From the NCBI GenBank assembly GCA_964447395.1, contig CAYUSO010000006.1, forward strand, positions 10,154 through 74,153: a stretch of DNA of 64,000 nt, written 5' to 3'. The position numbers and the translations under genes are program-made. Positions 22,340 through 23,644 of the stretch are shown here, piece by piece (position 1 is the stretch's first letter; every line of letters begins with the position of its first letter). The stretch comes from an uncultured Rhizobium sp. Lineage in GTDB: Bacteria; Pseudomonadota; Alphaproteobacteria; Rickettsiales; UBA1997. The notes under the pieces are model-generated. The model made no database searches and had not been told where the DNA came from. It saw nothing but the letters and a program-made list of their open reading frames with translations.

Positions 22340-23644
22340 CTAAAAATTAATTTTGCTCCCCTGCCAATATTCGTCCGACTCGATCTCCTTCAGCCTTGAA
22401 ACCGTGCGTTTGAAGGCTTCGGAGTGAGTGTGGATTTTGTCGGGAGTTGTTTTGGCGAGGATGATTAGCGCGGTTTTGTTTTCGTAAATTTCGTCGATGA
22501 AGAGTGTGAATCGCCGCGCCTCATTTGGCTCTTCGGCGCTCAAGGAAGGGAGTTTTAACAAAAAAATCAAATCAAATTTTTGGCAAATTGCTTGGTAATC
22601 GGAAGCGGAGAATTCGGCGCGGCAGAGTTCTTCGAAAGTGAAGATGGCGATTTCCTTTTTTTCAGCTCCCCAAGCAAAACCCTCAGTTCCCCAAGCAACA
22701 CTCTCAGTTCCCCGAGCGGAGTCGAGGGGATGGAAATTTTCTTTCGTAGCCCCTCGACTCCGCTCGGGGAACTGAGGGTGTTGCTTGGGGAACTGAGAGT
22801 GTTGTTCGAGGAACTGAAAACACTCGGGTAGTTTAGAAGAGATTTGGGAATATTGCTGAATGGAAAAACTTTTTCTGACTTTAATTTCCCTGCCCCAAAC
22901 TTTTAATTTTGTAATTTTCGCCTTTTTCCCGTCGGTAAAATTTTCGATAATTTTCTTTAGCTCTTCGCGGGTTTTTGTGTTGGAAATGAAGTAGCGTTGA
23001 GCCAAGCCTTTTCTGAATTGCGCACGATAATCTGTTGGCGAATCGAGATGCAAAACTTCGCAATTTTTTAGCAAAACTTCATCGATAAATTCTAAAAATA
23101 TTTCGCGTTGAAGTCCGTTTTTGTAGAGCTCACGCGGATGAGAGTTGGAAGTAAAAACAACCACCACACCTTGCGAAAAAAGATAAGAAAAAATTCGTGA
23201 AAGCAGCATGGCGTCAGCGATGTCGGTGACTTGGAATTCGTCGAGACAGAGGATTTTAGTCGTAAGCTGTAAGCTGTAAGTCGTAAGTCGAGTTTTGTGA
23301 GTGTTGAACGATGGTTGACGAGTGGAGACTCTTTTTACCGCCTCAATTAACTCATCTTTAAACTTTTTTTCCTCTTTTCGAATATCGCGCAGAGCCTCGT
23401 GAATCTTGCGCATGAAGCTGTTGAAGTGGAAATAAATTTTCGGCGTTTCATGAAGTGAATCGAAGAAATTTTTCATCAACATGCTTTTGCCGCGACCAAC
23501 ACCTCCGTAGATATAAAAGCTTTTTAGCGGATTTTTTTTTGCAAAAAACTTCGCCAAAAATCCGCTGGATGATTGCTGCTCAAGCTTTGTTGCGAGCTCG
23601 GCCAATTTTTTTTCGACGGCGATTTGTTGTGGATCGAGAATCAT
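22340..23644 (-). CDS. zapE: cell division protein ZapE (AFG1-like ATPase), with two in-frame repeat insertions
   Basis: 434 aa. Walker A GGVGRGKSMLM, Walker B ILCLDEFQVTDIADAM, then VVVFTSNSHPRELYKNGLQREIFLEFI. Confidence 0.9.
   Translation of the reverse strand: MILDPQQIAVEKKLAELATKLEQQSSSGFLAKFFAKKNPLKSFYIYGGVGRGKSMLMKNFFDSLHETPKIYFHFNSFMRKIHEALRDIRKEEKKFKDELIEAVKRVSTRQPSFNTHKTRLTTYSLQLTTKILCLDEFQVTDIADAMLLSRIFSYLFSQGVVVVFTSNSHPRELYKNGLQREIFLEFIDEVLLKNCEVLHLDSPTDYRAQFRKGLAQRYFISNTKTREELKKIIENFTDGKKAKITKLKVWGREIKVRKSFSIQQYSQISSKLPECFQFLEQHSQFPKQHPQFPERSRGATKENFHPLDSARGTESVAWGTEGFAWGAEKKEIAIFTFEELCRAEFSASDYQAICQKFDLIFLLKLPSLSAEEPNEARRFTLFIDEIYENKTALIILAKTTPDKIHTHSEAFKRTVSRLKEIESDEYWQGSKINF
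22663..22828. repeat. Family A palindromic element, long compound copy A5, inside the zapE ORF
   Basis: Core at 22706-22729 and its complement at 22750-22773. Each arm is extended by 21-nt sub-repeats: cagctccccaagcaaaaccct and cagttccccaagcaacactct, mirrored by agggtgttgcttggggaactg and agagtgttgttcgaggaactg. Translated as ...QFPKQHPQFPERSRGATKENFHPLDSARGTESVAWGTEGFAWG... Confidence 0.9.
23257..23330. repeat. Heptamer-tract element B2 (one clear arm), in frame in zapE
   Basis: tagtcgtaagctgtaagctgtaagtcgtaagtcgag at 23257-23292, followed by a degenerate interior similar to B1. Encodes PSFNTHKTRLTTYSLQLTTK; compare [18 protein letters not shown] in mnmG. Confidence 0.75.

Follow-up and report, generated by a model that had tools for sequence, protein, structure and literature searches.

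A short run of heptanucleotide repeats lies within zapE, the gene of a cell-division ATPase, in a Rickettsiales-like alphaproteobacterium, directly ahead of the Walker B motif, where it is translated as part of the protein. The gene lies in a stretch of 64,000 nucleotides from an uncultured bacterium (assembly GCA_964447395.1, contig CAYUSO010000006.1, positions 10,154 to 74,153 of the forward strand), which is referred to below as the window; it has a GC content of about 42%, and its nearest ZapE loci all come from lake metagenome-assembled genomes (MAGs), which marks the organism as a freshwater one. The tract is a lineage-specific in-frame insertion, and it belongs to the same family as copies found in mnmG (in the window genome and in at least seven relatives) and in murD. 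With a probability of roughly 0.6, we consider the segment to be a single-armed, in-frame heptanucleotide simple sequence repeat (SSR) of about 33 nt that is carried as a neutral passenger in a permissive surface loop. It is selfish or neutral repeat DNA of an already described kind, and not a decayed hairpin element. The features on which this reading is built are collected in the table.

Table. Repeat insertions and associated features of zapE and mnmG, in window coordinates.
Feature	Position	Strand	Remarks
zapE (AFG1-like ATPase) open reading frame, intact	22340..23644	-	Walker A GGVGRGKS, Walker B ILCLDEF; invariant columns of 24 orthologs all present
Walker B strand ILCLDEF, directly downstream of the insert	23234..23254	-	alignment; AlphaFold strand, residues 131-135
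Heptamer tract in zapE	23258..23292	-	plus strand (TAAGTCG)~4.7; coding strand (CGACTTA)n; encodes T118-T129 (TRLTTYSLQLTT)
Non-repeat linker extension S107-K117, STRQPSFNTHK (the "degenerate interior" of the initial annotation)	23294..23326	-	no arm similarity; borderline match to the linker of the closest relative, L145
Second zapE insertion, in-frame REP-like palindrome; arms are three 21-nt tandem units around the core CCCCGAGCGGAGTCGAGGGG	22659..22820	-	absent from L145
mnmG stop-free arm, CGACTTA-type on the coding strand, 11-residue peptide	17609..17644	-	3' junction shared by 8 or more of 120 orthologs
Loop of the mnmG palindrome, 13-residue peptide	17645..17683	-	native hairpin not recognizable in it
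mnmG TAA-bearing arm, read through as a 13-residue peptide	17684..17718	-	arms 84% complementary; fold z=-4.0; window lineage only
Second mnmG insertion, 27-nt direct repeat (96% identical, 60-nt spacing) flanking the perfect 10-nt hairpin GATCCTCCTA/TAGGAGGATC	16771..16857	-	

The insertion in the ZapE loop

The open reading frame (ORF) encodes 434 amino acids and matches the Pfam family AFG1_ATPase (E=5.9e-74). Since every invariant residue is retained, the gene looks functional. As the initial annotation had observed, a heptamer string, tagtcgtaagctgtaagctgtaagtcgtaagtcgag, is located at 23257-23292, just upstream of Walker B (ILCLDEF). Tandem Repeats Finder delimits it to 23258-23290, with a period of 7, 4.7 copies and 84% matches, so that it consists of head-to-tail 7-nt units in the number (about three copies or more) that defines a heptanucleotide SSR. 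On the coding strand the tract reads ACT CGA CTT ACG ACT TAC AGC TTA CAG CTT ACG ACT AAA, that is TRLTTYSLQLTTK, with the variant CAGCTTA in two adjacent units. It is translated as TRLTTYSLQLTTK immediately ahead of the Walker B strand; by the codon table, residues 111-130 of ZapE are PSFNTHKTRLTTYSLQLTTK, followed by ILCLDEF. The 12-mer GTAAGTCGTAAG, with at most one mismatch, matches four times in the window against 0.10 expected, a number (four or more) reached in none of 100 shuffled sequences, and all four matches fall within the zapE and mnmG loci. A scan for period-7 tracts likewise returned none from shuffled sequence.

That the segment is a repeat-derived insertion, as had been proposed, is borne out by its absence elsewhere. 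Among 118 ZapE orthologs that possess both flanking motifs, the spacing from HFN.FM to DEFQV is 43 residues in 103; it is 62 in the window and 48 in the closest relative, L145, and an LTT-type peptide occurs in none of the other 117. L145, whose zapE gene is 81% identical in nucleotides, has no tract and falls short of the window by 42 nt at the site. Subtraction of the 33-nt tract from the window leaves ...ACT AAA ATC..., which matches ...ACT GAA ATT... in L145. The alignment of orthologs around Walker B, which the initial annotation had called for, places no conserved sequence of tract-less relatives opposite the segment.

The site itself seems to be tolerant of additions. At least ten other ZapE orthologs hold unrelated insertions at the same point, so that the loop can be regarded as an insertion hot spot. 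In an AlphaFold run on the ZapE ortholog alignment, the core of the protein has a predicted local distance difference test (pLDDT) score above 90, and residues 108-130 form a coil between a helix (98-107) and a strand (131-135). The score is below 50 for residues 112-121, with block averages of 46 (111-120) and 66 (121-130). A housekeeping protein has thus received an in-frame insertion at a surface site that is permissive, as is described for Rickettsia palindromic elements (RPEs). Other lineages of the clade carry repeat-derived peptides of a different kind, HPELVSGSI and FPRRRES...DSRLRGND, which are likewise common to ZapE and MnmG and occupy the same two hot-spot loops. Their carriers are P0006/7/13/16/27 and P0066 for ZapE, and P0126/128/130/158/173/210/216/232/239 and P0212/229/230 for MnmG. 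Rfam yielded no match in the window at gathering thresholds, nor around the zapE tract at E<=1.

A heptamer tract of another kind touches zapE in the syntenic relative L146: at 6060-6091, an (AAATGCT)n tract runs across the called start codon of the gene and supplies several in-phase ATG triplets.

The peptide shared with MnmG

The initial annotation had remarked that two unrelated enzymes, ZapE and the tRNA enzyme MnmG, share an LTTYxxxLTT(K) peptide, and this stands: the stop-free arms of the two genes are identical at 32 of 37 nt. Because the 7-nt unit is not a multiple of three, three units traverse all three frames. Consequently, (CGACTTA)n reads CGA CTT ACG ACT TAC GAC TTA, or RLTTYDL, with a period of seven residues and without a stop in any frame, and (TAAGTCG)n reads TAA GTC GTA AGT CGT AAG TCG, so that TAA is met in every frame. 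The codon cycles thus establish what had been claimed, namely that only the stop-free orientation can be coding, and the single-arm copies in genes all have this orientation, in agreement with the strand asymmetry expected of heptamer SSRs. The common LTTY..LTT peptide in two unrelated proteins is explained by the same tract together with a single translatable orientation. Beyond the tract consensus, the zapE and mnmG copies have no derived substitutions in common except for a TTAG end, and each agrees with a perfect tract (32-33 of 37 nt) about as well as the two agree with each other. For that reason the apparent homology of the peptides is due to the heptamer unit that both copies contain, and not to any complex element in common. 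Matches of the LTTY..LTT type among proteins should accordingly be treated in annotation as repeat artefacts, not as homology.

In the window, mnmG (16076-18133, minus strand) carries the 18-residue tract peptide at residues 158-175. The codons of its stop-free arm are ...CTT ACG ACT TAC AAC TCA CGA CTT ACG ACT AAG (11 residues). This copy is a two-armed palindrome, and the TTAG/CTAA ends belong to its own inverted repeat. The sole in-frame TAA of the second arm is now AAA (17696-17698), and stop purging is thus visible in mnmG. The 26 extra residues contributed by the TAA-bearing arm and the loop are confined to the window lineage. The tract with the same 3' junction, LTT[KNS]-S[VA][VI]LTTGTF, recurs in P0121, P0122, P0123, P0145, P0146, P0157, P0159 and P0165, hence in at least 8 of 120 MnmG orthologs.

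The TAAGTCG unit is accordingly found at dispersed loci: zapE and mnmG of the window, mnmG of L146, L148 and L172, and murD of L012, the tracts of the four relatives being single-armed. The mnmG tract of L146 is nearly perfect (CTA ACG ACT TAC GAC TTA CGA CTT ACG ACT). That of L148 has the variant CTCACGA in three of its four units, a sign of unit-level homogenisation. The murD tract of L012 is a perfect single tract in frame (LLTTYDLRLTTF). The length of the 30-nt tract core does not differ between mnmG and murD of genomes with 22% nucleotide divergence, and analogous mnmG tracts were reproduced in independent NCBI, ENA and Logan assemblies.

In P0123 and P0157, the tract peptide stands in place of the native beta-hairpin VVLDDGQKISA and has the same length. 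The tract peptide of MnmG is also the best-scoring register against a profile of the native hairpin (score 2.0). The loop of the window's mnmG palindrome was considered as a remnant of that hairpin as well, and a profile of 84 native hairpins did not support this (p about 0.2-0.3). The native hairpin is present in those orthologs that are most closely related to tract carriers, and the flanks display no extra divergence. P0168 (native hairpin) and P0157 (tract) are 97% identical in protein and 93% in gene nucleotides, and P0127 (native hairpin) and P0122 (tract) are 93.5% identical in protein. Two pairs of this kind can be located at L146 10419-10450 versus L170 3001-4968 and at L148 9029-9058 versus L171 2277-4178, with proteins 93-97% identical. 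Such a switch among closely similar orthologs implies that the tract was either gained repeatedly, or lost when a native allele recombined with it. A neighbour-joining tree of 120 MnmG sequences gave no clear answer as to whether the tract carriers are one clade, and nearest-neighbour identities were used instead. Third-codon positions within the tract are conserved above the gene-wide level (9 of 10 versus 54%, p about 0.02), which is weak evidence for a process at the DNA level. The replacement of a native beta-hairpin by a tract, polymorphic among near-identical orthologs, may matter more than the zapE tract. If confirmed on complete genomes, it could provide a tractable natural system for the study of repeat DNA that remodels protein loops.

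Origin of the tract and rival explanations

The initial annotation regarded the zapE segment as the same two-armed element as in mnmG, with a TAA-bearing arm that had decayed under selection against stops. We regard this as possible and yet doubtful. The mnmG of the same genome does hold a two-armed in-frame copy whose TAA has become AAA, metagenome contigs often contain paired (TAAGTCG)n-loop-(CGACTTA)n structures, and the zapE insert exceeds the tract alone by about 20 nt in comparison with the ortholog consensus. However, in local alignments with a shuffle test, the 39 nt upstream of the tract resemble the TAA-bearing arm and loop of mnmG (p=0.93), a perfect TAA tract (p=0.50) and the reverse complement of the zapE arm (p=0.82) only at the level of chance. 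Nor does the zapE copy have hairpin potential (DNA fold -4.7 kcal/mol, z=-1.1), as against z=-4.0 for the mnmG copy and z=-5.9 for an intergenic heptamer palindrome (43070-43185), and there is no inverted tract near zapE. The sequence left after subtraction of the tract, about 21-24 nt above the consensus, offers no room for a loop plus an arm of roughly 35 nt. It resembles instead the linker of the tract-less L145, which is itself 5 residues longer than the ortholog consensus (TTCAACACTCACAAA versus TTCCA-AATCACAAA, p=0.05). Furthermore, the in-gene tracts of relatives are single-armed, the second arm of mnmG being unique to the window lineage, and since one point change sufficed to purge the mnmG stop, wholesale decay of an arm is not needed. 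Purging of a stop can be seen in mnmG; in zapE, no trace of a TAA-bearing arm was found.

Other explanations assign the peptide or the tract a function of its own. Selection could have favoured the LTTYxxxLTT segment as a structural module such as a small beta-hairpin, which several enzymes recruited with the DNA repeat as its vehicle. The position of the tract peptide exactly at the native hairpin site of MnmG, in its best register and with equal-length replacement in two orthologs, agrees with this, as do the common LTT...LTT phase at three genes and the conservation of third-codon positions. It is unlikely nonetheless, because AlphaFold predicts the ZapE insert with low confidence and without a hairpin, 117 of 118 ZapE orthologs work without the peptide, and the same loops accept very different repeat peptides in other lineages; the third-position conservation itself speaks for a DNA-level process and not for selection on amino acids. 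It could also be imagined that the 30-nt core (CTTACGA)4CT is a defined mobile coding cassette of a freshwater Rickettsiales-like clade. Such a cassette would place a hairpin-like LTTYDLRLTT peptide in loops of essential enzymes, and in MnmG even substitute for a native beta-hairpin; strains 93-97% identical would gain, lose or exchange it, and a DNA-level process, such as concerted evolution or repeated re-copying, would maintain its heptameric form. This extension of the argument is speculative and rather unlikely. A contingency locus, in which gain or loss of 7-nt units would switch zapE off and on by phase variation, is suggested by the frameshift that one-unit slippage would cause, and by the fact that SSRs are known to mediate phase variation (background cited in PMC4692102). 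This is very unlikely, as two variant units interrupt the tract, the gene encodes a housekeeping ATPase and the 30-nt core keeps its length in mnmG and murD across 22% nucleotide divergence. Three other assemblies of the population, which do not cover the zapE tract, have no length variants or other indels relative to the window, and differ from it by at most one base and not at all in mnmG with its tracts. Finally, an assembly or chimera artefact could be suspected, since the zapE tract is present on a single contig and other assemblies break near the zapE repeats. It is hardly credible in view of the preserved frame, the private variant units and the retention of every invariant residue, and because analogous mnmG tracts recur in independent assemblies.

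Some observations weigh against a single-armed SSR as the preferred reading. The zapE tract is known from one contig only, and three other contigs identical to the window end before it. The copies in zapE, in mnmG of the window and in mnmG of L146 have the same end, ...ACGACTAA(A/G) or TTAGTCGTAAG on the plus strand, and a 30-nt core occurs in the same phase (LTT...LTT) at three genes; the common end and phase hint at a defined unit instead of free slippage. The match of the upstream linker to that of L145 is only borderline. A two-armed ancestor followed by a deletion of at least 45 nt would be compatible with the sequence alone.

On the reading as a single-armed SSR, the tract would have entered zapE as one arm, probably as a copy of an existing tract that arose through template switching or by illegitimate recombination. 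The tract of mnmG has the same orientation and is 5.6 kb distant. Unit-level turnover may have followed, as the duplicated CAGCTTA variant suggests. The tract would then have persisted neutrally, being divisible by 3 in length and situated in a loop that tolerates insertions, and it probably contributes nothing to the function of ZapE. Upstream of it, the 11 residues STRQPSFNTHK would represent an older linker extension common to the sister lineage and not a decayed arm.

Other repeats and comparison with known systems

Both genes contain, as had been noted, two different repeat insertions each. The second one in zapE belongs to a family that resembles repetitive extragenic palindromic (REP) sequences. 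Its 71-nt arms are 90% complementary, the pLDDT of the corresponding residues (266-326) is below 50, and L145 lacks this 21-mer palindrome as it lacks the tract. Members of the family, with the core AGTTCCCCGAGCGGAGTCGAGGGG, are located at 436-538, 3679-3757, 5128-5196, 6119-6176, 22659-22820, 23752-23826, 57622-57688 and 59187-59260; an open frame of 658 codons encloses the copy at 6119-6176, and in those at 431-563 and 22659-22820 both arms are lengthened symmetrically by 18- or 21-nt tandem units. The second insertion of mnmG has no other copies in the window. At the second MnmG hot spot, L148 possesses a short in-frame palindrome (9790-9851), (CAGTCGA)n ... (ACGACTG)n, in which the would-be TGA is TGT and which encodes SVDSCQST-EF-GLTTDDCRP. 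Between zapE and mnmG lies an ORF of 1392 amino acids (18155-22333, minus strand) without a Pfam match. Relatives have a gene of 924-1392 amino acids in the equivalent position, and the L145 version is 58% identical.

Two intergenic heptamer palindromes with other units are also present. At 43079-43178, (AATTAAG)n ... (CTTAATT)n (z=-5.9) occupies nearly all of the 105-nt divergent space between an lpxB-like gene (41913-43073, minus strand) and an asd-like gene (43179-44192, plus strand). At 60007-60160, between the divergent genes 59304-59996 (minus strand) and 60163-61338 (plus strand), (TTACGAT/TTAGGAT)n is followed by (AAATCGT)n. Its arm order is opposite to that of the mnmG type, its unit is one base off the TAAGTCG type, and its 92-nt loop has a hairpin of its own, GACAGATCC...GGATCTGTC.

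When 269 kb of the lineage were scanned for a period of 7, the heptamer tracts within genes all proved to be of the TAAGTCG unit family. Heptamer SSRs are mainly intergenic, whereas the TAAGTCG copies in this sequence all lie inside genes; the other heptamer units of the window are intergenic. Three perfect units were found at more than 120 metagenome loci with GC contents from 0.29 to 0.68. In about 17 of 120, the arms are arranged as (TAAGTCG)n-loop-(CGACTTA)n and the loops are unrelated; a few of the loci are cyanobacterial as judged by the density of the HIP1 palindrome. The REP-like marker of the window genome occurs at none of these loci, and many carry other heptamer tracts. In viral contigs, the TAAGTCG unit has 2 matches, compared to 7 and 11 for two control heptamers of the same composition. 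The wide GC range, the missing marker and a viral frequency not above that of the controls led us to reject TAAGTCG as one special mobile family; for the same reasons the metagenome matches can be attributed to the general abundance of heptamer SSRs.

The closest parallel in unit structure is offered by the TAACTGA heptamer direct repeats of Beggiatoaceae, Cyanobacteria and Bacteroidetes, which have stops in all forward frames (MacGregor 2015, PMC4679880). In reverse, these are translated as LSVISYQ within otherwise unrelated ORFs, and the mechanism of their spread is unknown (PMC4679880). As with TAACTGA, the repeats in zapE and mnmG consist of 7-nt units in tandem, one strand having stops in three frames and the other being open; a 7-residue peptide (RLTTYDL here) results, which is common to otherwise unrelated proteins. 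Unlike TAACTGA, the unit is TAAGTCG and the host belongs to a Rickettsiales-like alphaproteobacterial MAG lineage. TAACTGA repeats lie for the most part between genes, immediately upstream of start codons, and those in ORFs are found at protein termini (PMC4679880), whereas in about 269 kb TAAGTCG is present only within genes, in interior loops of essential enzymes, and one copy, that of mnmG, is a two-armed in-frame palindrome.

Bacteria show an over-representation of heptamer SSRs, which also occur as inverted pairs (Rehm et al. 2015, PMC4692102); GGGAATC tracts form 70-75 such pairs in each of two Xanthomonas genomes (PMC4692102). The convergent inverted pairs of the mnmG copy, of the two intergenic window copies and of about 17 of 120 metagenome loci are able to form stem-loops, like the Xanthomonas GGGAATC tracts and the short tandemly repeated repetitive (STRR) heptamers of cyanobacteria. 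In contrast to the TAAGTCG copies, GGGAATC and STRR repeats are intergenic and none is reported as an in-frame coding insertion; GGGAATC is moreover G-rich and quadruplex-forming (PMC4692102).

RPEs are in-frame insertions in many housekeeping genes (Ogata et al. 2000, 2002, as summarized in PMC10969869). In the features given there, the similarity is considerable: selfish in-frame repeats are found in unrelated housekeeping genes at permissive surface sites, where they do not destroy the protein, and they add a conserved peptide in Rickettsiales-type genomes with many such insertions. The same descriptions set the zapE copy apart, since RPEs measure about 100-150 bp and have a family consensus and hairpin potential, whereas this copy is a tandem repeat of 33-35 nt without a hairpin or a conserved interior. 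A hairpin-forming palindrome of that length, as known for RPEs and MITEs (miniature transposable elements with inverted repeats), is thus absent from zapE, as is the consensus including the interior: zapE and mnmG share the heptamer arm only, and the loops of paired copies elsewhere are unrelated. An inverted partner and a consistent direct duplication at the junctions, as in generic MITEs, are lacking in zapE as well. The present case is therefore that of a heptamer SSR behaving like an RPE. Ordinary heptamer microsatellites can act in the manner of these elements, with in-frame entry into essential genes, survival in the stop-free orientation only and a shared peptide in unrelated proteins.

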